A stretch of 64,000 nt of DNA from a virus. Under the pieces are notes generated by a model that did no database searches, was not told where the DNA came from, and saw only the letters and a program-made list of their open reading frames with translations. The stretch lies in IMG/VR virus record IMGVR_UViG_3300046167_000870. One strand, 5' to 3'. The position numbers were made by a program, and so were the translations under genes. Below are positions 6,907 through 21,033 of this stretch, one piece after another (position 1 is the first letter of the stretch; each line of letters begins with the position of its first letter).

Positions 6907-7371
6907 TTATTCGCTGTAATAAGCAGCGTTTTTACCGTGTTCTGCAAACTTAACTTTAATAACTCTTACTCTGTTATCAGTTTCAGTTTTAACAAAATCA
7001 TTTAATTTGTGATAAATATATTCAGCAAATTTCTCTGCGCCAGTAGCTGGAATTACTCTTACTTGTGCTACACCTGCTTTGTCCATTTGTTGAAATGCTT
7101 TTAATTCAGGATCATCTTCTGCTATAATCATAGTATGATCAAACATATAATCCATCCATGCTTTAGGAGATTTACCATCAATTAGAGTTTTAGCTCTTTT
7201 CATTCCACCAAAATCCCAAACCCAATTCCTTTCATCTAATTCACCTTCAAAATATACTTTAAAGGAAATACCATAACCATGTACAAATCTACAGTGTGTT
7301 GTTGTTGCTTTCCATTGACGAAACACTGTACTAAAACCGTCAAATACTTTACTTGATTGAAATTTACCCAT
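6907..7371 (-). CDS. queD: 6-carboxy-5,6,7,8-tetrahydropterin synthase
   Basis: HCRFVHGY, WDFG, FDH, GAEKFA; cluster context. Confidence 0.9.
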   Translation of the reverse strand: MGKFQSSKVFDGFSTVFRQWKATTTHCRFVHGYGISFKVYFEGELDERNWVWDFGGMKRAKTLIDGKSPKAWMDYMFDHTMIIAEDDPELKAFQQMDKAGVAQVRVIPATGAEKFAEYIYHKLNDFVKTETDNRVRVIKVKFAEHGKNAAYYSE

Positions 7372-7612
7372 TATACCAATTTAATATGTCTTCCCTTGAC
7401 TGATTACCAACTGTTCTCTTTATCTCATTATTACTATCATCTACTTTAATTAAAGTTGGGACTGATCTAACAGAATAATGAGCTGCTTTTTCCATATCAT
7501 TGTCAATATTTACTTTATGAATAGGAATTTCTAAACTTAACTTGTCCATTACTGGACCTAGTGCTTTACAAGGTCCACACCAAGGAGCTGTAAAATAAAT
7601 AATTTTTGCCAT
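7364..7612 (-). CDS. Thioredoxin
   Basis: WCGPC active site, SVPTL. Confidence 0.93.
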   Translation of the reverse strand: MAKIIYFTAPWCGPCKALGPVMDKLSLEIPIHKVNIDNDMEKAAHYSVRSVPTLIKVDDSNNEIKRTVGNQSREDILNWYNG

Positions 7613-8199: not shown

Positions 8200-9045
8200 C
8201 TATACGTATTCAGCAAGCACTTTTTCGACATGAGATTTTGCTACTTCATAATCAACTACTCCAGTTTCATCTGCATAACCAACAGGATCAGGTCTTCCTA
8301 ATTTAATAAATGCTTCAATACGTTCAACACTAGAAGCTGATTTATAATCACTGTACCATTCGTATGCATTAGTTTCAGGTCTACTATAAACTTTAAGTGG
8401 TTTATAAGAAGTGTTAGTTCTAGAATAAACTTCATCAAAATCAATACCTAAAATTTCACATAACTTTTCTCCATCCTGTAGGATACCAAATTTATCAGTA
8501 TCTAAATAAGGTGTAAAGTAACCTACTCTATCTGCATCCCAATTTCCAATTCTAAAAGCTGCATCATCTGCATCTCTAAATTCTTGTCTACAATCAGGGT
8601 AAACTGCATGATCACCAGCATGGATACCTAAAGCAATATCACAAACATCTTCTGTTCTATTTGCTACAGATAATGCTACTGCTTGAGTAATTGAAGCAAA
8701 CATTTTGTTTCTATTAGGAACAACTGTTTCTTTCATATTATCTTGTTCATAATGTCCTTCTGGTACATCATCTCCTCCTTGAACTAAAGCTGAATCTAGT
8801 AAATCTACTAATCCATCTAGTTTAATTTGACGATAATTAACTGTACAACCATTAAAACAATTTTCATCTACTGGGCAGATTTTATTGATATAATCAACTA
8901 ATTGTTGAGCTCTTTCTAGCTCTACTCTATGCTTTTGACCATAGTCAAAAGATATAGCTGTTACAGAATCATACTTTTCGATAGCTCTTAACAATAGGGT
9001 GCTGCTATCCATTCCACCACTTAAACTAACTACACAATGTGCCAT
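8200..9045 (-). CDS. queC: 7-cyano-7-deazaguanine synthase
   Basis: SGGMDS, FDYGQKH, VPNRN, YPDCR. Confidence 0.95.
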   Translation of the reverse strand: MAHCVVSLSGGMDSSTLLLRAIEKYDSVTAISFDYGQKHRVELERAQQLVDYINKICPVDENCFNGCTVNYRQIKLDGLVDLLDSALVQGGDDVPEGHYEQDNMKETVVPNRNKMFASITQAVALSVANRTEDVCDIALGIHAGDHAVYPDCRQEFRDADDAAFRIGNWDADRVGYFTPYLDTDKFGILQDGEKLCEILGIDFDEVYSRTNTSYKPLKVYSRPETNAYEWYSDYKSASSVERIEAFIKLGRPDPVGYADETGVVDYEVAKSHVEKVLAEYV

Positions 9046-10939: not shown

Positions 10940-12151
10940 CTAATAAGTTTTTGTTTCATCATCTTCTAAATCAGAAACTATACCTTTTAATTTTTTTACT
11001 TCTTGTAAGGCTTTATCTACCCTATTTGAACTTTTAGTTATTCCACTACTAAGAATTGATTCTTCTAACTCAGCTATTCTTTTTTTTGCCTCTCCTATCT
11101 CTGAATCATCAACAATTCCATCTTTATTTAGATCTAATTCATCAAAATAATGTTCTCCATCATTACCATTTTGACCAATAATATCCATTCTTTTTTCCTC
11201 ATCATCACCATAGTTTTTGATATTGACTTTATCATCCCAATGTTTACCATGGTCTTTAATATACTGTTTTCTTTCTTCTTCAAGAGTTAAAGGTTTAACT
11301 TCAACATCTTCTCCATATAGGTTTTCTCTATATTTTCTTTTAGGGTATGCTTTATCAAAAGCAAAGTTAGCAGCCACAACTAATGAAATAGCTAAAGGAT
11401 CAAATACAAAAATTATAATAAGTAATAGTACATTTATGATTTTATCCATAGGAGTACCCGTCAAACCCGATAAATACTGCAGTGGTCCTAGTTCTCCAGC
11501 AACCTCGTTGTTACTTTCTAGTTCCAGCACTTGTAACTGGAATTTCTGAAGTGAATCAGCTGCTATTTCTCTCTTTCCTTGCGCCAACTTACGATTCTCC
11601 TCCTCAATATTAATACGATTCTGCGCCATTCTAAGCTCAGTTGTAGAGATTGTTGTTCTAACGCCCCCAGATACCGTGGTGTCTCGTACTTGGATGGACG
11701 AAGCTTTTGCATTAGATAAAGTACTAATATTACTAGATATTCTTTTAATTTCTTCATCGTATCTATTTACATCTGCTTGATAAAATTCTACTTTTTGTTG
11801 TATAAAACCCTTTTGATTTTCTGCTATAGTTAATTTACTATAAGTATCCTGATAAGCTGCACTTAAAAAACCATAAATACCCATACTAGTAATTAATACT
11901 AATACTATAGTTGCTATTGATAAATAAGTTCTTAATGCTTTATTAATTGAGTCCCAATATTGGTATAATAAAGATGCTGTTACTAATTTAGCAAATTCTA
12001 ATGAACCTGCCATTATAATAACTTGAAATTGGGCTCCAGCAAATAATTTGCTTAATCCATAAACTGAGTAGAATGCTGCCGATGCACTTACTGACAAAGC
12101 AGAAAATGCAATTAGGAACGGAAACATTCCCTTTTTAATTTCTTTAAACAT
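10940..12151 (-). CDS. Multi-TM membrane protein with periplasmic coiled coil and EF-hand-like loop
   Basis: Three N-terminal TMs, coiled coil, TM ending VFDPLA, DLNKDGIVDDSE. Confidence 0.7.
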   Translation of the reverse strand: MFKEIKKGMFPFLIAFSALSVSASAAFYSVYGLSKLFAGAQFQVIIMAGSLEFAKLVTASLLYQYWDSINKALRTYLSIATIVLVLITSMGIYGFLSAAYQDTYSKLTIAENQKGFIQQKVEFYQADVNRYDEEIKRISSNISTLSNAKASSIQVRDTTVSGGVRTTISTTELRMAQNRINIEEENRKLAQGKREIAADSLQKFQLQVLELESNNEVAGELGPLQYLSGLTGTPMDKIINVLLLIIIFVFDPLAISLVVAANFAFDKAYPKRKYRENLYGEDVEVKPLTLEEERKQYIKDHGKHWDDKVNIKNYGDDEEKRMDIIGQNGNDGEHYFDELDLNKDGIVDDSEIGEAKKRIAELEESILSSGITKSSNRVDKALQEVKKLKGIVSDLEDDETKTY

Positions 12152-12162
12152 AATTTTAGTTT

Positions 12163-12636
12163 TTACACTGTATCGTGGTCAATATACGTCACTTCTACGT
12201 CATCTCCACGCTCTATTGCTTCTGCTATTGCTGGGTATACTCTTTTATAAGCATCAACTGATGATCCTATAAACCCATTTGGTCTTTTAGTAATATTTTG
12301 ATATTGAGTATCTCCTAACAATAAACATCCAGCTGTGTGTTCATCTGTATTTCCAGTATGCCAAAGGATATATTTAAAATTAGGTACATCTTGTACATGA
12401 ATCATTCCTTTATGCATAGCACCATACTTTCCAGCATATCTACCATGAAAACCACCTACTTTTCTTAACTTTAATTTATAAGTACCTGCTGGTATTCTTG
12501 TTTCAGCCATTATTTTATCTTCTCTGTGTTCATCTTCTAGTGTATAACAAAGAAATTTAATTTCATCTGTTACATCCATTAATAGTCCATTTGTGCTGTC
12601 TTTCTGTGAACTAAATCTAATTACTTCTAATTTCAT
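12163..12636 (-). CDS. DUF5675-like protein, candidate endolysin
   Basis: CYTLED, RIPAGTY, VPNFKYILWHTGNTDEHTAGCLLLG (His/Cys pair). Confidence 0.75.
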   Translation of the reverse strand: MKLEVIRFSSQKDSTNGLLMDVTDEIKFLCYTLEDEHREDKIMAETRIPAGTYKLKLRKVGGFHGRYAGKYGAMHKGMIHVQDVPNFKYILWHTGNTDEHTAGCLLLGDTQYQNITKRPNGFIGSSVDAYKRVYPAIAEAIERGDDVEVTYIDHDTV

Positions 12637-12639
12637 AAT

Positions 12640-12822
12640 TTATAGTTTTACTACGCTAAAAATAGCGTACGTTATTAACATAAATAGTACACCACCCATT
12701 ACATCTTCATGATGTTTTTGTTCTGTTTTTGGCGTACAACATTTGTCAGCTGGAACTTTACTAGTCCCACACCCACTTAGTAATATTAAACTTAACGCCG
12801 CTGTTATCATTTTCTTTCTCAT
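12640..12822 (-). CDS. Small lipoprotein with C-terminal TM helix
   Basis: MRKKMITAALSLILLSG-C lipobox; C-terminal GGVLFMLITYAIFSVVKL. Confidence 0.65.
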   Translation of the reverse strand: MRKKMITAALSLILLSGCGTSKVPADKCCTPKTEQKHHEDVMGGVLFMLITYAIFSVVKL

Positions 12823-12838
12823 AGTTATAGTTTTAAAT

Positions 12839-12868
12839 AAAAATTCCCGCACCTTGCGGTACGGGAAT
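12839..12868 (-). terminator. Intrinsic terminator
   Basis: Minus strand TTCCCGTACC-GCAA-GGTGCGGGAA followed by a T-run. Confidence 0.75.
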
Positions 12869-13153: not shown

Positions 13154-13393
13154 CTAATTGTCTTCGTCTTTTTTCTTTCCGAAGATTTTGCCTACCTCAG
13201 CGATTCCGAATGAACCGAGTGTTATGATTACAAAGGAGTTGTATATGTAATCTTGAATCTGTAATTCCTTGCCGTAAACACCTGTTACAATGTCTACTAC
13301 TGCAAAGATAACCATTACCATGAAGGACATAAAGCCCACCACGTTTTTTTCATTAATGTTGTTGTCGTCTTTAAACAAATCTTTAAATGCCAT
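13154..13393 (-). CDS. Holin-like 2-TM protein
   Basis: Two TMs and a charged C-terminal tail (KKKDEDN), near the DUF5675-like gene. Confidence 0.5.
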   Translation of the reverse strand: MAFKDLFKDDNNINEKNVVGFMSFMVMVIFAVVDIVTGVYGKELQIQDYIYNSFVIITLGSFGIAEVGKIFGKKKDEDN

Positions 13394-13455
13394 ACTTCTA
13401 GTTTTTAAAAATTAGTAAAACTATTAGCGGAACCTTATTGTTGTGATTATAAATA

Positions 13456-13881
13456 TTAGAATCTGTTAGAATTTTTAGCTTCTTCAATAGCTTCTTCAAC
13501 ATCTTCTTTGGTGGATGGGAATAGTAGATCTAATCCTGCTTTAAATTTGGATTGTATTCCATCTTGAGTTATAATAAACATGGTAGGAGCCATTCTAACT
13601 CTATATTTTTTCTTTGCTAGTGGAGCTTTAGAAATATCTACTCTATAATATTCTATGTCTGGTCTACTTGCTAGCTCTTGCCAGTGTTCGTAACAATTTA
13701 TTTCATTAAATTTGGCCCAATATTCTACTACTACAATTTTGCTATCATCATCACCAAATGCTGAATTGCCATTTACAATTTCTTCGTAATTTGAATCATC
13801 TAACCAATATTTTTCAGGAACTTCCTGTTGTGCTAAAAGCATTAAAGGAAAAATATAAAATAATATTAAAAGTTTTTTCAT
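13456..13881 (-). CDS. Secreted thioredoxin-fold protein lacking CxxC
   Basis: Signal peptide; VVVEYWAKFN...YRVDI...YRVRMAPT. Confidence 0.7.
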   Translation of the reverse strand: MKKLLILFYIFPLMLLAQQEVPEKYWLDDSNYEEIVNGNSAFGDDDSKIVVVEYWAKFNEINCYEHWQELASRPDIEYYRVDISKAPLAKKKYRVRMAPTMFIITQDGIQSKFKAGLDLLFPSTKEDVEEAIEEAKNSNRF

Positions 13882-13883
13882 GT

Positions 13884-14168
13884 TTATCTTTGTTTAGATA
13901 ACTCATAAAGACGCTCTTCTAGCTTTTCCATTTTCTCCAGTATCATTTCAACGTCTTCTTGGGTATCCATTATGGTTTGGCGAATCAACTCATCCTTTAA
14001 GTCATATTCGACCCTTTCAATAACTGGTTCTGGTTGTGTTGCAGCGTATGCTATATCTGCTTTTAATGTAAAATACATACCTGCTAGGGAAACAGTGAAT
14101 GCCACTATCATCCCAATAGTTTTTAAATCTAGAGTTACTTTAGTATCTTCTCCTATTTGCTTTGCCAT
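13884..14168 (-). CDS. Single-TM coiled-coil protein
   Basis: One hydrophobic helix followed by a heptad-rich acidic tail. Confidence 0.65.
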   Translation of the reverse strand: MAKQIGEDTKVTLDLKTIGMIVAFTVSLAGMYFTLKADIAYAATQPEPVIERVEYDLKDELIRQTIMDTQEDVEMILEKMEKLEERLYELSKQR

Positions 14169-15364
14169 TATTTAAATGTATAATTTAATCCGAAGGTTGT
14201 TTGATATAATTTGCTATCCCACATTTTTGAATATTCTCCTTCTATGAATATCCCTAAGTTTTTACCAATTTTAGTTCCTAAATTAACACCAAAAGAATAA
14301 TCATGCCATTGCTCACCTTTTAAATTATTATTGTGACCTCCAAGTCCCCAACTATTTCTGTGTAAGTAACTAAAATCTTCATTTCCTCTAATATACCTGT
14401 GGTATGGTAAAATATAATTAGCATATCCGTGTAGCCAAAAATCTTTTTTGTAGTGGTAAAAATCTACACCTACTATTGGGGCTAAATCTAACCATGGGTC
14501 TAATAAATCCCAAGCTTCACCGTTAAACCTATTCATTAACATAGGCATTACAGTTTCTCTAAAATCTAAATCTGAGTGTGCTACTTGGTTTCCATCTTCA
14601 TCTACCCAACACCAGTCTTGCATTGTTGTTTCTTCTCCTGTAATTGGGTCTGTGCTTGTTTGTGTATAGAAAATATCATTATAACCATAATTTCTTCCTA
14701 ATTCATACCATTGATTTACTGCGTTCCCATTCTCATCAATTTCATTTAACCATATTTCGACTGGGTTATAACCGTAAGCTCTTTCATGTCCTCTTAATAT
14801 TGCTCCAGCTGAAAAGCTAAACTTTTTTCCTATTGGTAATCTACCTCTTACTTCGGCTGAATTATATTTAAGATTAATTTTACCTACTTCTCTAGCTTGA
14901 AGTTTTACAATATGATATTTACCTGTGTGTTTTAAAAAGTAATTATAATTTGTAAAATTTTCTCCTCTCCATCTTTCTTTTTCATAATGGAATTGGTATT
15001 CTAATCCTTGTACTGCTGATGTTGGGGCAGAAAATACTAATTGTTCTTCTGTACCATCATAAAAATTCTTTGGTTTTCTCTCGTAATCAAATCTAGCTAA
15101 TTTTCTTATTCCAAATCCATATCTGTAATCAAATGGATATTTTGGAGTATTATCAACCACATCAGGAATTGAATATAAACTCCCATCTGGATTTGTTCTT
15201 AAAAAGTAAGTTGGCTCTGCAGCCTCTATTGAATTTGAAATATCACCCGCTCCATAAACAGTACCATATTTCAAGAAATCTTTATAAACTTCTTTTAAAA
15301 TTTGGGCTTGTGAAACTGTTGGTGAAAATAAAATAAACGAAACAATTAATACTAATATCCTCAT
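14168..15364 (-). CDS. Secreted probable outer-membrane beta-barrel protein
   Basis: Signal peptide, aromatic alternating strands, BAM-type C-terminal strand TFGLNYTFK. Confidence 0.65.
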   Translation of the reverse strand: MRILVLIVSFILFSPTVSQAQILKEVYKDFLKYGTVYGAGDISNSIEAAEPTYFLRTNPDGSLYSIPDVVDNTPKYPFDYRYGFGIRKLARFDYERKPKNFYDGTEEQLVFSAPTSAVQGLEYQFHYEKERWRGENFTNYNYFLKHTGKYHIVKLQAREVGKINLKYNSAEVRGRLPIGKKFSFSAGAILRGHERAYGYNPVEIWLNEIDENGNAVNQWYELGRNYGYNDIFYTQTSTDPITGEETTMQDWCWVDEDGNQVAHSDLDFRETVMPMLMNRFNGEAWDLLDPWLDLAPIVGVDFYHYKKDFWLHGYANYILPYHRYIRGNEDFSYLHRNSWGLGGHNNNLKGEQWHDYSFGVNLGTKIGKNLGIFIEGEYSKMWDSKLYQTTFGLNYTFK

Positions 15365-15424
15365 ATTATTATCGTTTTATGTTTGCCGATAAATATATGA
15401 AAATTTATGAATATTCGAAGAAAT

Positions 15425-15865
15425 TTAAAATTTTATTCGATCAATTGCCTTTTTTACTGCAGAAGAGAATGTTGTTTTATTAAATGGTAATTTTTCATTA
15501 CTTAAATCAATAAAAGTTGATTCTACTGTGGATTTAGCTTTACCAGTTACTTCAATTTCTTTACCATCTATGTAAACTAGCATTTTAACAATTGTTTTTT
15601 TTGCGGCTTTACTCCAGACTCCAAATTCAATACTTGTTGTAGGTGCTTCTATAGATTTTACTATTACCCTTACAGGTTTTCCATCCATACATAATTCATA
15701 TTTGTCTGAGATTACATCTTCCATTATTTGTTTTATACCAAATATTATACGGTTTTTGCTAATTTCTTTCATTTCAATCTGTGTACTTACTATAGTTACA
15801 GTATAACATTCTTGTGATAATGCAAATACAGGTAAGCACATTAATAGTATAATTATTTTTTTCAT
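15425..15865 (-). CDS. Secreted CsgG-fold-like paralog
   Basis: Signal peptide; FNKTTFSSAVKKA matches FNKSTIGIATKKA of 17044-17748. Confidence 0.5.
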   Translation of the reverse strand: MKKIIILLMCLPVFALSQECYTVTIVSTQIEMKEISKNRIIFGIKQIMEDVISDKYELCMDGKPVRVIVKSIEAPTTSIEFGVWSKAAKKTIVKMLVYIDGKEIEVTGKAKSTVESTFIDLSNEKLPFNKTTFSSAVKKAIDRIKF

Positions 15866-15866
15866 A

Positions 15867-17063
15867 TTAAAATCTTATTTTACCACCAGTTAATATCTGG
15901 AAATTTAATGCATTTCCTTGTGAATGCCAAACTCCAGTAAAACTGATATTATATTTAAATGTTTTTGTTATTTTTATATCCCATGAACTAAAAGGTACTA
16001 TTAGCATACCTGGATCCCACCATTTACCTTCATAGTATTGTGTAAATGGAGAATAAACGCCTAATAATAAAGCTGATGTTGTTATTTTATCACTTATTCT
16101 AAAATTTCTATGTAATCCAGCAACGGCTGATATGTTTTGTAGTTCTCGTTTACCTAATTTACCTATTGTAAGATTGATACCAGCCATACCAGTATACTTT
16201 TTTTTATAAAATTTAAAGGATTCTAAAACTGTAGTTGTATTTAAATGGTTGTACTTCCAATCTGTCATTGTAGTATTTGCTCCTACTAAATTAAATGTTC
16301 TATTTGGATTAATCCATGATTTATAAAGTGTTAAACTAAAATCATTAGTAACAGATGTATATGTAAATAAAGCTCCTTTAATTCTAGTTTGTTCTGTATT
16401 AGCATGAGTTATTGAGCTAACTACTTTTATTTGACGTCCATTTGAATTATCTTGGTTATCAATAACTACAATATCACCTGATGCAATTAATGAACCTGCA
16501 TTTTTATTAGCTTCTGCACTTCCTCCATCTGCTGCATTTGAGAGAGAATTAGCTAGTGAAACAGCAACCGCACCTTCAGCTTCTTCTTCTTCATTACCTG
16601 ATCCTTCATCTTCATCTTCTTCATTACCTGATCCTTCATCTTCATCTTCACCTGCTGAATTATCTATTGCTTCTGCTACTGGGGCTGCTGCTGCTGAAGT
16701 TGCTTGAGGTAACATATCTCCTCCTAGTATAGACATTATACTTGTAACAACTGTAATTGTATTTTGTACTGCTACGGAATTGGTAGTATTTAATAGTACT
16801 TGAGTTACACTTTCACAAGGACTTGATGAATTAGCTTGAGTAACTAAATCTAACCAAGAATCAAAAGCTCCATTTGTAAAATCATCTTGTGAAAATGTTT
16901 GGACATTTCCAAAATAATTTAAGGCAACAGCATTACTACCTCCTATTTGAATTGTTTGTTGAGTTAAAGTACAAGGATCTGTAAATGTATAAGACCACTG
17001 GCCATAACTTACCAATGGTAAGAAAAATAAAATTAATAGTATTTTATTCTTTAAATATCCCAC
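15867..17063 (-). CDS. Secreted protein with acidic linker and C-terminal beta-barrel-like domain
   Basis: Signal peptide, DPC..SPC Cys pair, EDEDEGSGNE repeats, C-terminal ILTGGKIRF. Confidence 0.6.
   Translation of the reverse strand: MGYLKNKILLILFFLPLVSYGQWSYTFTDPCTLTQQTIQIGGSNAVALNYFGNVQTFSQDDFTNGAFDSWLDLVTQANSSSPCESVTQVLLNTTNSVAVQNTITVVTSIMSILGGDMLPQATSAAAAPVAEAIDNSAGEDEDEGSGNEEDEDEGSGNEEEEAEGAVAVSLANSLSNAADGGSAEANKNAGSLIASGDIVVIDNQDNSNGRQIKVVSSITHANTEQTRIKGALFTYTSVTNDFSLTLYKSWINPNRTFNLVGANTTMTDWKYNHLNTTTVLESFKFYKKKYTGMAGINLTIGKLGKRELQNISAVAGLHRNFRISDKITTSALLLGVYSPFTQYYEGKWWDPGMLIVPFSSWDIKITKTFKYNISFTGVWHSQGNALNFQILTGGKIRF
16590..16649. repeat. 30-bp tandem repeat x2 (encodes EDEDEGSGNE)
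   Basis: ttcattacctgatccttcatcttcatcttc occurs twice in tandem. Confidence 0.9.
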
Positions 17064-17748
17064 GTTTTATCATCCTTTTTACGATACGGGCAGTTCCAGA
17101 TTCTAAAGCTTTTTTAGTGGCAATTCCAATAGTAGATTTATTAAATTTAACTTCATTGTCTTCTCCAATTTGAGATCGTTTAATTGTAACCGCTTCACCA
17201 CTACCACTTCCTGTAAAAATAGTTCCAGTTTCAGCATTAACAAATCTAACTTGCATACCAATAATTGTTTTTAATACAGTTTTAACTCCATTAACTGTAA
17301 CTTCTTCTTCTTCTGATACTGAGTAGTCATAGATTTCTACATATACAAAATATTCTGCTAATACAACATTACCTACAACTTTAATATCATTTGATGATAT
17401 ACCTTTTGCAGCTGCCTTATGTTGTTTAACCATTCTTTGTTTAATATCTTCTTTATCTTCTGTAAATAGGAATCTATCAGTCCATTCTAGATAAGATAAA
17501 GTAATATTACTAACACCTAATCCTACTCTGTTTTCTCTTAATTCAGGATAAAATTCATATAATTCTGGTGTAAAGCCAATATTTAAGACTTGAATTGGTA
17601 ATTGGTAATCTAACATATAATCAGATACTTCATCTATATCTGCATCTTGTTCAAATTTACCTTTATAATTTTCTGTTTCAGTTTTACCTAATTGAGCATT
17701 AGCTGTAAAACTTAAGAGTAACGATATTATTAAAAAAATTCTTACCAT
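17044..17748 (-). CDS. CsgG/HfaB-family envelope protein
   Basis: Signal peptide; TDRFLFTE, AEYFVYVEIYDYS, MQVRFVNAETGTIFTGSGSGEA. Confidence 0.7.
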   Translation of the reverse strand: MVRIFLIISLLLSFTANAQLGKTETENYKGKFEQDADIDEVSDYMLDYQLPIQVLNIGFTPELYEFYPELRENRVGLGVSNITLSYLEWTDRFLFTEDKEDIKQRMVKQHKAAAKGISSNDIKVVGNVVLAEYFVYVEIYDYSVSEEEEVTVNGVKTVLKTIIGMQVRFVNAETGTIFTGSGSGEAVTIKRSQIGEDNEVKFNKSTIGIATKKALESGTARIVKRMIKRGIFKE

Positions 17749-17999
17749 GATATTTCTTCTTCTTTTTCTTCTTTCTTAGGAGGTATTACTATTGTTTTAG
17801 AAATTACAATAGTATCTTTAGAAGCCGCTGGTGGGTTAATTCTTTGTTCCATTATAGGTTGTTCTACAACATCTTCTTTAGGTTCAAATATTGATTGCAT
17901 ATTAGCTATTAATAATCCAAAGGCTGCTGTTATAACTAATCCTATACCTGTTACTACTTGGTTTTTGATTTCCGAAAAAAATCCTTTATTTTCACTCAT
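17742..17999 (-). CDS. Single-TM protein
   Basis: N-terminal TM, Pro/Glu-rich tail with DTI. Confidence 0.65.
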   Translation of the reverse strand: MSENKGFFSEIKNQVVTGIGLVITAAFGLLIANMQSIFEPKEDVVEQPIMEQRINPPAASKDTIVISKTIVIPPKKEEKEEEISW

Positions 18000-18730
18000 T
18001 TTTTAATTATTTTAAATGTTTTAACAAATCTACCATTACTTACTTGTAATAAATAAATTGCAGATGCTAAGTCTGATAAATCCATTTGGAATGAAACGTA
18101 ACCACTAAAAAATTCCCTTGTAGTTGATTTCATTAATGTTCCGTTATACGTAATTACTCTTATTGTATAAGAACCATTATCCGGTACTGTTAATTCAAAT
18201 GTTAATGGACCTTTTACTGGGACAGGATATACTATACCATAAATGCCATCTGCTGGTTGTGTATCAAATGGAAGAGACATTTTATTAACATATCCATCTG
18301 TGTTATCAACATCAATATCCCACCCTAAATCTGTACCTGCTGTTTTTCTTCCTATGGTAATTGGTATTTCAGTCCAATTTTGATCAATAACTTTAAATCT
18401 TACTGTAAATAACTCAGTTGTATTACTTATAGTAAAGTTACCAAAAGAGGCATCATAACCTCCCCATCTTACTGTTTCACCTTCCCAATCCTGTGTATAT
18501 GTTAACCATTCTTGTGCCTTAGCTGTTACAGTAATTTCCTCAAATTCTAAATATTGAGAATCAAATTCTAAAGCAAATTCTAAACTTCCAACTGTTTCTC
18601 CTGATGTTTCAATTTCTACAGGTAAATTAATATATTCACTAACAGGAACCTCAATCTCAGGTACGTTAAATACGACCTGAGAATGAGCTACTGTTGTTAT
18701 GGTTAGTAAAAATATTAATAGTTGTTTCAT
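17996..18730 (-). CDS. Cohesin-domain protein with T9SS type A C-terminal sorting domain
   Basis: Signal peptide; VGSLEFALEFDSQYLEF...ELFTVRFKV (cohesin); IVYPVPVKG...DLSDLASAIYLLQVSNGRFVKTFKIIKK (CTD). Confidence 0.8.
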   Translation of the reverse strand: MKQLLIFLLTITTVAHSQVVFNVPEIEVPVSEYINLPVEIETSGETVGSLEFALEFDSQYLEFEEITVTAKAQEWLTYTQDWEGETVRWGGYDASFGNFTISNTTELFTVRFKVIDQNWTEIPITIGRKTAGTDLGWDIDVDNTDGYVNKMSLPFDTQPADGIYGIVYPVPVKGPLTFELTVPDNGSYTIRVITYNGTLMKSTTREFFSGYVSFQMDLSDLASAIYLLQVSNGRFVKTFKIIKK

Positions 18731-18733
18731 TTA

Positions 18734-19816
18734 TTAATTTAACCCTGTTCCATTTGCATCACCTAATACTAATATGTAGAAATTACCTGTTGTAGTTCCA
18801 TTTATATTTGGTGATAAGAATTCTGCTAGACCTGGTATTGAGCTAGACTGATCTGAAGTTGCATTATTAATAGTATTGTACTGTGCTTCAGTGAAGAACA
18901 ATACATCTGGATTATTAGCGTAACTTGTACCATTAGTTGCTAATCTAGCAAACAGTAAATAAGAATCTGATACTGTAACTCCATTTGCTTGATTTGGATT
19001 TGCAGTATAAAATTGTATACCTGATGTTGCTTGTGCTCCTGCTGCTATTTGAGCAATCATATTAGCATCAGCTGTTGATAATGCTGTACTTGCATTTAAC
19101 CCACTTGCAATTTTAAGTCTAATTTGCCAGAAAGCTTGGTCTAGATTTGCTGAGAATGTTGCTTTTCCATCTGCTCCAGTTGTTACTGTAGATACATTTG
19201 TCCAAGAACTACCATCTGAAGATTTTTGTAAAATTACAGGGATCGATTGAGCTGGATTAGAAGGACTATTTAGAATAGTTGCTACATAATCAAATGCTGG
19301 TTCTGTAAAGTTACCACCATTATCAGAAGTACCTAAGGTAGCATCAGTACCATCAGCTTTTGCATAATAAGCAGTTAAGTTATTAGTAAAATCAATGTCA
19401 GCAACTGCACCATTAGTATAACTAGATTTAAATGGTAATGAAACATCAAACATATTACCTGCAGTAATGTCAAAAGTAGTAGTGGCACCAGTATAAGCCC
19501 ATACAACTTTTACTATACCATTTGCTATACTTGTAGATAAATAAGCATCAGTACCTGAGGTGTTGTTATAAGTTACAGTTGGAGGATCAAATACACTTGT
19601 ATCATAGTTAAAAGAAAATTGAATACCTTTTACTTTGGTACCTGAAGTATTGTCATAATAAAGATCAACTACAGTTGGATTTGAAGAATTAGTAGATTCT
19701 AAAGCATAACTCGAATCAAGAATCACATAAGGCTTACTAGCATCAGGTGATGTTGTTTGTGCATTAATTGTAGTTGTTAGCATTAACCCTGCTAACAAGA
19801 AGAGTAGTTTTTTCAT
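18734..19816 (-). CDS. Secreted cohesin + Ig-like + dockerin-like protein
   Basis: Signal peptide; VKGIQFSFNYDTSVF; TVTTGADGKATF; LSTADANMIAQ...QFYTANPNQANGVTVSD...LGDANGTG. Confidence 0.7.
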   Translation of the reverse strand: MKKLLFLLAGLMLTTTINAQTTSPDASKPYVILDSSYALESTNSSNPTVVDLYYDNTSGTKVKGIQFSFNYDTSVFDPPTVTYNNTSGTDAYLSTSIANGIVKVVWAYTGATTTFDITAGNMFDVSLPFKSSYTNGAVADIDFTNNLTAYYAKADGTDATLGTSDNGGNFTEPAFDYVATILNSPSNPAQSIPVILQKSSDGSSWTNVSTVTTGADGKATFSANLDQAFWQIRLKIASGLNASTALSTADANMIAQIAAGAQATSGIQFYTANPNQANGVTVSDSYLLFARLATNGTSYANNPDVLFFTEAQYNTINNATSDQSSSIPGLAEFLSPNINGTTTGNFYILVLGDANGTGLN

Positions 19817-19851
19817 CGTAGTGTATGTTTTTTTATTATAAATATGTAGGG

Positions 19852-21033
19852 CTAGTTCTTATGTCCAGCTCTTATTACATAGAATATAGTAGAGTCTCCA
19901 TTATTTCTATCAAATAGACTATAACTCCCATATCCAAAACTTTCAGATTTGTCATCAGTATCTGTATCTAAAGGATCCCAATAAAATGGAGTTTGCTGAT
20001 AATGAAAAACTTTTGTAGAAGGAGTAGTATTAGCATATTGTGTAAATATACCATTCATATAAGCTAACATAGAATATAAATCTGCAACACTAAATTTCCC
20101 GTCATTATTAACATCCATTCTCCAATAATCTTTAGAATTATAAACCCCACTAATTAATTTAGTAGTAAAGTAACTGACATCATTTAGGGTAGGTATTGAT
20201 AATGCAGGCTGTACTACATCAATAGTGTAGTCATAGCTATTATAATCTAAAGTAGTGTTAAAGGAGTAATAACCATTTGAGTCTGTGGTTGTAGTAGCTT
20301 GAGTTGTATATGAGAAACCAACTTGATTTTTGTTTTGGGTTTTCAGCTGTACTGTAACTCCAGATAAGGCTTCTTCTTCTGCTCCATAAACATATCCAGT
20401 ATGAGTTATAGGGTCAATAGGTTCAGTAGTAGACCATTCTGCAAATGGATGACCGGGACTGAGTTGATTATAGCTACTACCATTCGGTATTTTATATTGG
20501 AAATTTGCAGCACCTATACCACCAAAATTTTGAATTCTATATTCAAACTCATACCATGTATTTTTATCTAGGGTTGCCGTACCATAAGCCCATACATTCC
20601 AACCATAATGTTTAGTAACTATATCATTAGTCTTACCAATACCTTTAATCATAAACTCATGTGAGTCATCAGTAAATGTTCTAAATGAATATACGCCTGA
20701 TTTATTAGGTTTAAACCAACCAGAATAGATAATTGCATACTCTTTGAGTACTCCCATCTTGGTGGGATTCCATAGTTGATAAGGGGTATGATTACCACCT
20801 CTTGGGCCTTGATAACTTGTTATATCTACAGGTCCTTCTGTATAGAGTGTAGTACCACCATCAGCAAGATTAACCATGTTATCAAATTCTGTATGGCTGT
20901 TAGCATTACCTGTATAATACTGACCTGAGTTACTACCACCATAATGAGTCTTAAGTGACCTTATGTTTACTGTAGTTTGTGCATTTATAAATCCACTAAT
21001 TAAAATAAAAAAACAAAGTATTCTGGTTTTCAT
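19852..21033 (-). CDS. Secreted PA14 + Ig-like + dockerin protein
   Basis: Signal peptide; YSGWFKPNKSGVYSFRTFTDDS (PA14); LSGVTVQL...TTTDSNGYYSF; RMDVNNDGKFSVADL (dockerin Ca loop). Confidence 0.78.
   Translation of the reverse strand: MKTRILCFFILISGFINAQTTVNIRSLKTHYGGSNSGQYYTGNANSHTEFDNMVNLADGGTTLYTEGPVDITSYQGPRGGNHTPYQLWNPTKMGVLKEYAIIYSGWFKPNKSGVYSFRTFTDDSHEFMIKGIGKTNDIVTKHYGWNVWAYGTATLDKNTWYEFEYRIQNFGGIGAANFQYKIPNGSSYNQLSPGHPFAEWSTTEPIDPITHTGYVYGAEEEALSGVTVQLKTQNKNQVGFSYTTQATTTTDSNGYYSFNTTLDYNSYDYTIDVVQPALSIPTLNDVSYFTTKLISGVYNSKDYWRMDVNNDGKFSVADLYSMLAYMNGIFTQYANTTPSTKVFHYQQTPFYWDPLDTDTDDKSESFGYGSYSLFDRNNGDSTIFYVIRAGHKN

Follow-up and report, generated by a model that had tools for sequence, protein, structure and literature searches.

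Why should a phage carry ten consecutive genes whose products all appear to be made for the cell envelope, some of them resembling the cohesins and dockerins of bacterial surface complexes? The question is raised by IMG/VR virus record IMGVR_UViG_3300046167_000870, of which a stretch of 64,000 nucleotides (the window, in what follows) was analysed. Ten contiguous open reading frames (ORFs) on the minus strand, here numbered g1 to g10, fill positions 13456-21033, as had been noted in an initial annotation made from the letters alone; the gaps between them range from -20 to +60 nt. That annotation read the block as a cohesin-dockerin, type IX secretion system (T9SS) and CsgG envelope module from which the phage builds a lectin-tipped complex on the infected cell. 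We consider it on balance probable that the block is a conserved non-catalytic operon of a marine phage, the products of which are exported into the envelope of infected Flavobacteriia and assemble there as a lectin-capped chain. The genes on which this reading is built are the following.

19852-21033, minus strand: g1, 393 amino acids (aa); a signal peptide and a variable head with a tentative PA14-like motif, then an Ig domain of prealbumin type, a dockerin-like segment and a conserved tail
18734-19816, minus strand: g2, 360 aa; a signal peptide and a cohesin-like N-domain, then a transthyretin/Ig-like domain, helices resembling a dockerin and a tail that ends in GDANGTGLN
17996-18730, minus strand: g3, 244 aa; a cohesin domain between a signal peptide and a C-terminal T9SS sorting domain of type A
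17742-17999, minus strand: g4, 85 aa; membrane protein with a single pass, its tail rich in Pro, Lys and Glu and closed by an acidic stretch with Trp (EEISW)
17044-17748, minus strand: g5, 234 aa; probable divergent member of the CsgG/HfaB superfamily with a signal-peptidase-I type signal
15867-17063, minus strand: g6, 398 aa; signal peptide, N-domain with two Cys (~22-115), acidic low-complexity linker and 12-stranded barrel (~190-398)
15425-15865, minus strand: g7, 146 aa; signal peptide and CsgG-like core, a short paralogue of g5

A simple hydrophobicity scan found an export-type N-terminus (signal-peptide-like, hydrophobic) or a transmembrane (TM) segment in all ten block proteins, in agreement with the initial annotation; elsewhere in the window the same scan flagged about 7 of some 65 other ORFs, 3 of which lie directly downstream of the block. 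Pfam and NCBIfam scans of the ten proteins returned no catalytic domain, so that the description of the block as non-catalytic is upheld. A comparison with PHROGs gave two weak and uninformative matches, neither of them structural, and PADLOC gave none. The genes nrdA and nrdB lie directly upstream, with g1 starting 5 nt after nrdA. The window encodes a terminase, a portal, a major head and a tail sheath protein and therefore belongs to a myovirus; the position beside nrdA in such a phage had also been annotated correctly. The structural genes occupy 30-57 kb of the window, outside the block, and GC content and skew are uniform across the block. Among sequenced isolates, similar DNA was found only in the 160-kb Flavobacterium myophages vB_FspM_immuto (three isolates), which grow on Flavobacterium sp. 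LMO8 and are the closest cultured phages.

A synteny search had been proposed for the cluster. Searching IMG/VR with g3 gave 11 loci that have g1 to g7 in order, and a scan with the g5 alignment found at least 581 viral stretches, the best 80 of which were examined for gene content. In these 80 loci the genes keep the same order, with g5 present in 80, g6 in 79, g3 in 77, g2 in 75, g7 in 69 and a g1-like gene in 68. The identity of g5 ranges from 53 to 97% across these loci, and g2, g3, g6 and g7 fall to 25-35% identity where g5 keeps 53-59%; g5 is the most conserved gene of the module. The order g2-g3-g4-g5-g6-g7 is also kept in phage immuto. On searching 185,579 species genomes, only ten matching contigs were obtained, all from metagenome-assembled genomes (MAGs), and no cultured bacterial genome was found to carry the module. 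Six of the ten contigs carry further module genes beside g5 (L093-L096 most of the module, L097 and L098 a weak match to g3 or g7); their bins are assigned to Flavobacteriaceae, Flavobacterium, Sediminibacterium and unclassified Bacteroidetes, and they are probably mis-binned phage. The other four contain lone bacterial CsgG-like genes of 31-34% identity in unrelated contexts. These data support the block being a conserved phage module. It may be noted that L093 (CBFHJJ010000001.1, 248,233 bp, from a Flavobacteriaceae MAG) and L095 (254,203 bp, from a Bacteroidetes MAG) exceed the ~160-168 kb of the other phage contigs; they could represent phages of greater size, concatemers, or a joining of phage and host sequence.

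Proposed anchor, adaptor and variable cap

Both domains that had been assigned to g3 were recovered above their curated cut-offs. The cohesin domain matches PF00963 with 33.4 bits (E=6e-8, cut-off 24.1), and residues 167-244 match the T9SS sorting domain both as PF18962, Por_Secre_tail (31.4 bits, cut-off 27), and as TIGR04183 (33.3 bits, cut-off 23), the latter being the check that the initial annotation had proposed. The N-terminus of g3 is hydrophobic and resembles a Sec signal.

The proposed adaptor g2 had been described as a cohesin-Ig-dockerin protein, and by its own sequence all three parts are weak or below the cut-off. Its Cohesin match reaches 17.6 bits against the cut-off of 24.1, the Pfam matches of the transthyretin/Ig-like domain are weak (a profile search of the PDB likewise gave only a weak transthyretin-like match), and the dockerin-like helices lack a canonical Ca loop. 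Two of its eight homologues reach Cohesin at E=0.0045, and g2 also presents a cohesin-like face in the complex model described below. In distant phage loci, g2 and g3 form one polypeptide of ~634 aa in which a cohesin-like domain, an Ig domain, a dockerin-like segment, a cohesin and the sorting domain follow one another. Among 24 such fused homologues, Por_Secre_tail is matched by all 24, Cohesin by 18 (best E=2.7e-12) and Dockerin_1 by 7 (best E=7.8e-5), and one of them shows two cohesin stretches. The split forms break directly after a conserved GDANGTG motif. By this comparison of sequences, g2 is the detached N-terminal half of the g2-g3 protein of other phages, and the fusion ties it functionally to the T9SS-sorted anchor.

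The proposed cap g1 has in common with g2 an Ig domain, a dockerin-like segment and a tail, and across the g1 family these parts remain while the heads swap. In 36 family members the heads match Lectin_C (20 cases), the ConA-like Laminin_G_3 (7), GEVED (5), Ig_7 (2) and PA14 (1). Judged by these matches the g1 family is a set of lectin caps, and the lectin tip that had been proposed is borne out for the family; the PA14 domain that had been assigned to the head of this particular g1 is not. Its own sequence has no match to PF07691 (cut-off 24 bits), and three close relatives have partial matches of 15-16 bits, covering model positions 43-78 only; a single distant family member matches PA14 at E=1.1e-6. 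The prealbumin-type Ig matches of g1 are also below the Pfam cut-off, and a PDB profile search with g1 gave nothing usable. The dockerin-like segment (about residues 283-335) has one DxNxDG loop, and the tail ends in IRAGHKN. A type I dockerin is defined by two tandem Ca-binding loop-helix segments together with a Pfam match; g1 has one canonical Ca-binding loop (DVNNDGKFSVAD) preceded by a helix-only segment. Dockerin_1 (PF00404) is matched by neither g1 nor g2 of the window, and by 1 of 17 relatives at E=0.0052.

The pairing of cohesin and dockerin, for which complex modelling had been suggested, was modelled with three chains, i.e. the g3 cohesin, mature g2 and the C-terminal half of g1, the last being the scored partner. 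The complex scored 0.69 as against 0.11 for the best of 3 controls, this score covering the g1 partner and leaving the g2-g3 contact outside it. The mark set for the score was reached by 58 of 80 solved complexes and by 2 of 110 mismatched pairs in a calibration which the present job, having three chains and alignments made by ourselves, does not resemble. The runs have at least 97% of contacts in common, with a partner pLDDT (predicted local distance difference test) of at least 78. In the modelled interface, residues 286-294 and 309-335 of g1, which are the dockerin-like helices, lie on residues 63-66, 92-113 and 147-158 of g2, which are cohesin-like. The pass may come from a memory of solved cohesin-dockerin structures and the job is unlike the calibration, so the model speaks for a likeness of binding mode and not for binding. 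With this reservation, the dockerin-like helices of g1 may dock on the cohesin-like face of g2.

Proposed membrane stalk, CsgG-like proteins and barrel

In 90 of 92 loci a member of the g4 family directly precedes g5, and all members end in an acidic stretch and a Trp (EE[ED]xW). The g4 of the window matches the hidden Markov model of this family at E=5.4e-9, and its single membrane pass agrees with the TM protein that had been annotated after g3.

The initial annotation had two proteins of CsgG fold, g5 and g7, and suggested a CsgG secretion pore. In Pfam g5 itself has no match. An exhaustive profile search, on the other hand, gave 46 relatives, 22 of which match PF03783 (best E=1.9e-17), and E. 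coli CsgG is recovered by the profile of the g5 family (E=3.3e-4) in an alignment that sets the conserved YPEL motif of g5 opposite the constriction loop YPASNF of CsgG. Homologues of g5 from Ignavibacteriales and Rhodothermales, 33-34% identical to it, match CsgG with 28.6 and 31.6 bits (cut-off 20.8), and language-model features also point to CsgG. Through these intermediate sequences g5 is linked to the superfamily, of which it is probably a divergent member. The alignments of the g7 and g5 families (hhalign, A7 against A4) match with a probability of 86% (E=4.8e-6, 110 columns), and g7 is thereby retained as a probable paralogue. A pore is a different matter. The CsgG channel is recognised by a lipobox Cys and by two amphipathic TM beta-hairpins per subunit, which build a 36-strand barrel. 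In g5 and its phage relatives the signal is of ...ANAQ type and has no lipobox Cys (distant bacterial relatives do carry one), and no membrane hairpins are seen, the equivalent segments having 20 and 17 residues with 6 and 7 charged ones. Therefore the secretion pore is not upheld. The AlphaFold2 (AF2) model of g5, made from a shallow alignment, is not confident (pLDDT 50.6), a PDB profile search with the shallow g5 profile gave nothing usable, and curlin, CsgE and CsgF have no Pfam or NCBIfam match in any of the ten proteins.

Some bacterial relatives of g5 are multidomain proteins. P0320, P0329 and P0336 have a CsgG-like N-terminus and a caspase-like C-terminus; in P0327, P0347 and P0356 a Ser/Thr kinase or its C-terminal remnant is followed by a TM segment and a CsgG-like C-terminus. 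Because a periplasmic CsgG-like domain is thus fused to caspase-like or kinase domains, a role in sensing or oligomerisation rather than as a pore is suggested.

Of the two beta-barrel-like proteins that had been annotated, g6 is supported by a fold model as a 12-strand outer-membrane barrel, and the barrel of g8 is not borne out (see below). In the AF2 model of g6, made from an alignment of 54 sequences, the barrel has a pLDDT of 70-86 and the linker, below 50, is disordered. The top PDB matches in Foldseek are NalP (E=5.7e-4), EspP, NanC and KdgM, with a TM-score normalised by the query of only 0.26-0.34 against NalP and EspP. A shape search of the Atlas gave autotransporter beta-domain (TM-score 0.52/0.57), DUF481 and YaiO clusters; the Pfam family Autotransporter (PF03797) is not matched by g6. 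The linker (about 16490-16700 of the window) is acidic, being rich in E, D and G, here and in L002; in other relatives a Lys run comes first and a Ser/Asn/Glu/Gly-rich part follows, and the linker size ranges from ~35 to more than 200 residues.

Possible assembly, role and alternatives

From the domain identities, the conservation, the g2-g3 fusion and the head swapping we infer a physical assembly, a surface location and a role, as follows. All parts would be exported by Sec. The host T9SS would sort the g3 cohesin, or the fused scaffold, to the cell surface as an anchor, g2 would join g3 as an adaptor, and g1 would plug its dockerin-like helices into g2 and present a glycan-binding head as a cap. 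The remaining core proteins may form a platform with g4 as an inner-membrane stalk, the CsgG-like g5 and g7 in the periplasm or associated with the outer membrane, and g6 as a barrel with a tethered N-domain; this platform would be associated with the cohesin-dockerin chain, with which it is co-inherited. Because the g1 heads swap, an interface with variable glycans is suggested, and the most probable role of the whole would be to alter the binding properties of the infected cell surface. By masking a glycan receptor it could bring about superinfection exclusion or protect the progeny from debris; with an equally good fit, the infected cell could be stuck to other cells or to particles.

Several points weigh against this assembly. 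The Cohesin match of g2 and the dockerin-like segments of both g1 and g2 are under the Pfam cut-offs by their own sequences, and neither g1 nor g2 has a T9SS sorting domain of its own. The reservations on the complex model given above (possible structure memory, a job unlike the calibration, a score outside which the g2-g3 contact lies) belong here too, as do the missing lipobox Cys and membrane hairpins of g5. The host and its T9SS are deduced from relatives only. Also, in many distant loci the module is flanked by endolysin-like genes and small holin-like membrane proteins, which would fit a role in lysis as well.

Lysis is in fact the main rival, although we think it unlikely. In that case the operon would be an envelope-spanning device, with g4 in the inner membrane and g5/g7 and g6 at the outer, which weakens the outer membrane or times its disruption in the place of spanins; we know of no spanins recognised in these Bacteroidota phages. 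Besides the flanking genes of the distant loci, it is favoured by the small TM proteins, lipoprotein and DUF5675 protein that follow the block in the window, by a 79-aa TM protein that stands between g4 and g5 in many loci, and by the lysis-regulating role proposed for phage csgGF genes (PMC9004378). However, it is not obvious what lectin heads, cohesins and a T9SS sorting signal would do in lysis, seven conserved genes far exceed the need of known spanin or disruptin solutions, and both the window and immuto have the block after nrdAB, in a neighbourhood of DNA-metabolism genes. The second rival, to which we also give little chance, is that g5/g7 and g6 are an outer-membrane conduit made by the phage, either curli-type (type VIII) or autotransporter-like (type Va), which exports g1 and g2 or admits macromolecules, the cohesin-dockerin parts then being its cargo. 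The place of g5 in the CsgG superfamily with YPEL aligned to the constriction loop, the layout of g6 (N-domain, linker, 12-strand barrel) with the autotransporter translocators NalP and EspP as best structural matches, the want of a sorting domain in g1 and g2, and the csgG/csgF genes without curlin genes known from pelagimyophages and phage Melnitz would all agree with it. Against it stand the missing lipobox Cys and the short, charged hairpin equivalents of g5, the bacterial relatives in which the domain is a periplasmic partner of caspase-like or kinase domains within one protein, the failure to match Autotransporter, CsgE, CsgF or curlin in Pfam, and a g5 model that is not confident.

Much less probable is that the proteins are virion parts serving decoration or adsorption. 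Phage capsids and fibres commonly bear Ig-like and lectin domains and the g1 heads vary like receptor-binding proteins, but a TM anchor or a signal peptide that looks cleavable is present in each protein, g3 has the T9SS sorting domain and g6 is an outer-membrane barrel by its model, and the block lies outside the structural region and has no structural match in PHROGs; the virion reading was rejected on these grounds. Finally, cohesins, T9SS sorting domains and CsgG-like proteins are bacterial inventions and six MAG contigs carry the module, so a mis-assembled bacterial insert, or host DNA recently captured and without phage function, was considered. The initial annotation had itself named a chimeric insert as what would speak against it. 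This is contradicted by the same order in 80 independent viral contigs and three immuto isolates, by the uniform GC content and skew, and by the lack of any cultured bacterial carrier among the 185,579 species representatives. A chimeric insert is therefore excluded by the conservation over viral loci; mis-assembly was rejected, and we see hardly any chance for this explanation in either form.

Returning to the lectin-capped chain, its parts may be compared with known systems. Cohesin-dockerin assemblies of bacteria consist of an anchoring scaffoldin, an adaptor scaffoldin and a dockerin-bearing subunit. The phage module would repeat this hierarchy of anchor, adaptor and payload, having a bona fide cohesin in g3, a cohesin-like and dockerin-like adaptor in g2 and a dockerin-like cap in g1, with two dockerin-like helices on one cohesin face in the modelled contact. 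Unlike a cellulosome, it is encoded by a lytic phage, its payload is a lectin and not an enzyme, and the anchor is a T9SS sorting domain instead of an SLH domain or a sortase signal. It has one canonical Ca loop in g1 and none in g2, with Dockerin_1 and the g2 Cohesin match below the cut-offs, and CsgG-like proteins and an outer-membrane barrel invariably accompany it. No glycoside hydrolase, other catalytic domain or dockerin-bearing enzyme was found in the module, nor any glycoside hydrolase or other catalytic domain in the 36 g1-family members, and the initial view that this is not a degradative cellulosome holds.

Phage cargo for the T9SS has been reported once before, as single cargo proteins, in the cryoconite Cryophage (Bellas et al. 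2020, PMC7468147), where type A cargo comprises single enzymes and one PA14 protein, the T9SS is presumed to be hijacked, and the cargo genes differ between phage variants. There each cargo has its own sorting domain, whereas in the present module the tag is confined to the cohesin anchor and the variable lectin would be attached indirectly; CsgG-like proteins, a barrel and a cohesin module were not reported there. Pelagimyophages (HTVC008M group) and the Methylophilales phage Melnitz carry csgG/csgF without curlin subunits (PMC9004378, PMC7029224), for which uptake, sibling capture and lysis control have been proposed as speculative roles (PMC9004378). These are likewise marine myophages having CsgG-family genes without curlins; their CsgG proteins, however, model as full pores paired with CsgF, while g5 has neither lipobox nor hairpins, is paired with the truncated g7 and belongs to an operon of Bacteroidota phages that also has the cohesin, T9SS and barrel genes. 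With the type Va autotransporters NalP and EspP, g6 has in common the signal peptide, N-domain, linker and C-terminal 12-strand barrel, except that its linker is low-complexity, variable and acidic or Lys/Ser/Asn-rich in place of a defined helix and that its passenger has only ~95 residues. In the literature we found no description of the combined operon or of any phage cohesin-dockerin system.

A wider proposal, which we regard as tentative and rather doubtful, is that a large clade of Bacteroidota phages reprogrammes the infected-cell surface through a T9SS-exported cohesin-dockerin chain on a CsgG-like/barrel platform, in which an exchangeable lectin sets the glycan that is bound or hidden. 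If true, this would be a new class of phage-directed surface display controlling superinfection, the loss of progeny to debris or the attachment to particles and neighbouring hosts. Should the reading of the block as a lectin-capped envelope assembly hold, hundreds of aquatic Bacteroidota phages devote ~5-7 kb to a dedicated non-enzymatic assembly in the host envelope. It would be the first cohesin-dockerin system outside cellular organisms and a case in which a virus employs the T9SS for display, and the CsgG-like genes of marine phages, so far unexplained, would gain a context. An arms race with host glycans is suggested by the swappable lectin caps, and this is relevant to how phages meet their hosts, to aggregation and to carbon export in marine Flavobacteriia; the split and fused scaffold forms would offer natural building blocks for display on the surface of Bacteroidota. 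As one carrier, phage immuto on Flavobacterium sp. LMO8, is in culture, the system is open to direct tests.

Accessory genes and surroundings of the block

The last three genes of the block, a further small gene and the first strong terminator-like site are as follows.

14168-15364, minus strand: g8, 398 aa; signal peptide, aromatic-rich, accessory
13884-14168, minus strand: g9, 94 aa; membrane-anchored with a charged C-terminal half, accessory
13456-13881, minus strand: g10, 141 aa; secreted thioredoxin-like protein without CxxC, accessory
13154-13393, minus strand: small membrane protein of 79 aa with a NINEKxVVGF motif, outside the block as annotated
12843-12868, minus strand: terminator-like hairpin, an 11-bp stem followed by a T run, the first strong one downstream of the block

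Since g8 to g10 follow g7 in only 4 of 92 loci, they are regarded as accessory and outside the conserved core. None of the 2484 homologues of g8 has a name, an Atlas search gave viral clusters only (the nearest named ones being outer-membrane barrel families at 0.93), hhalign found no relation to the g6 family (probability 4%), and a PDB profile search with g8 gave nothing usable. For g9, annotated as a TM coiled coil, the TM segment is seen. The description of g10 as a thioredoxin without CxxC is right as to the motif, the active-site position reading WAKFNEINC in place of WCxxC with a single Cys, but its match to Thioredoxin (PF00085) has 23.1 bits, just under the cut-off of 23.5. By comparison, an 82-aa protein at 7364-7612 (minus strand) has the canonical thioredoxin/glutaredoxin motif WCGPC and no signal peptide. 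Members of the family of the 79-aa TM protein travel with the module in 42 of 92 loci, where they lie upstream of g5 by a median distance of 281 bp.

Terminator-like sites are absent within 13154-21033. A scan for sigma-70 promoters was uninformative (54 sites against 73 expected), and the GATATATA motif was not found near the block, there being 3 sites in the whole window, below chance. At 7570-7610 of L003, GATATATA motifs stand back to back in a divergent intergenic region upstream of g1; the module there has its own upstream region, unlike the window, where g1 adjoins nrdA.

Just past the hairpin, at 12640-12852 (minus strand), lies a protein of 70 aa that has a lipobox of the classical kind (LILLSGC) and, in its C-terminal part, a hydrophobic segment; it could be a small outer-membrane lipoprotein or a lysis protein resembling a unimolecular spanin. 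It is followed by the DUF5675 protein at 12163-12636 (minus strand; PF18925, E=2.2e-26; phrog_1501) and by a membrane protein of 403 aa at 10940-12151 (minus strand), homologues of which are present a few kb past the module in 4 of 92 loci, including L036. Endolysin-like genes beside the module were located at 5277-6098 in L058, 13373-14580 in L038 and 12470-13069 in L036, and their N-termini resemble peptidoglycan-binding domains (GLTADGVFG). Further on, at 8200-9045 (minus strand), QueC (PF06508, E=1.5e-36) is part of a 7-deazaguanine cluster, as it is in immuto.

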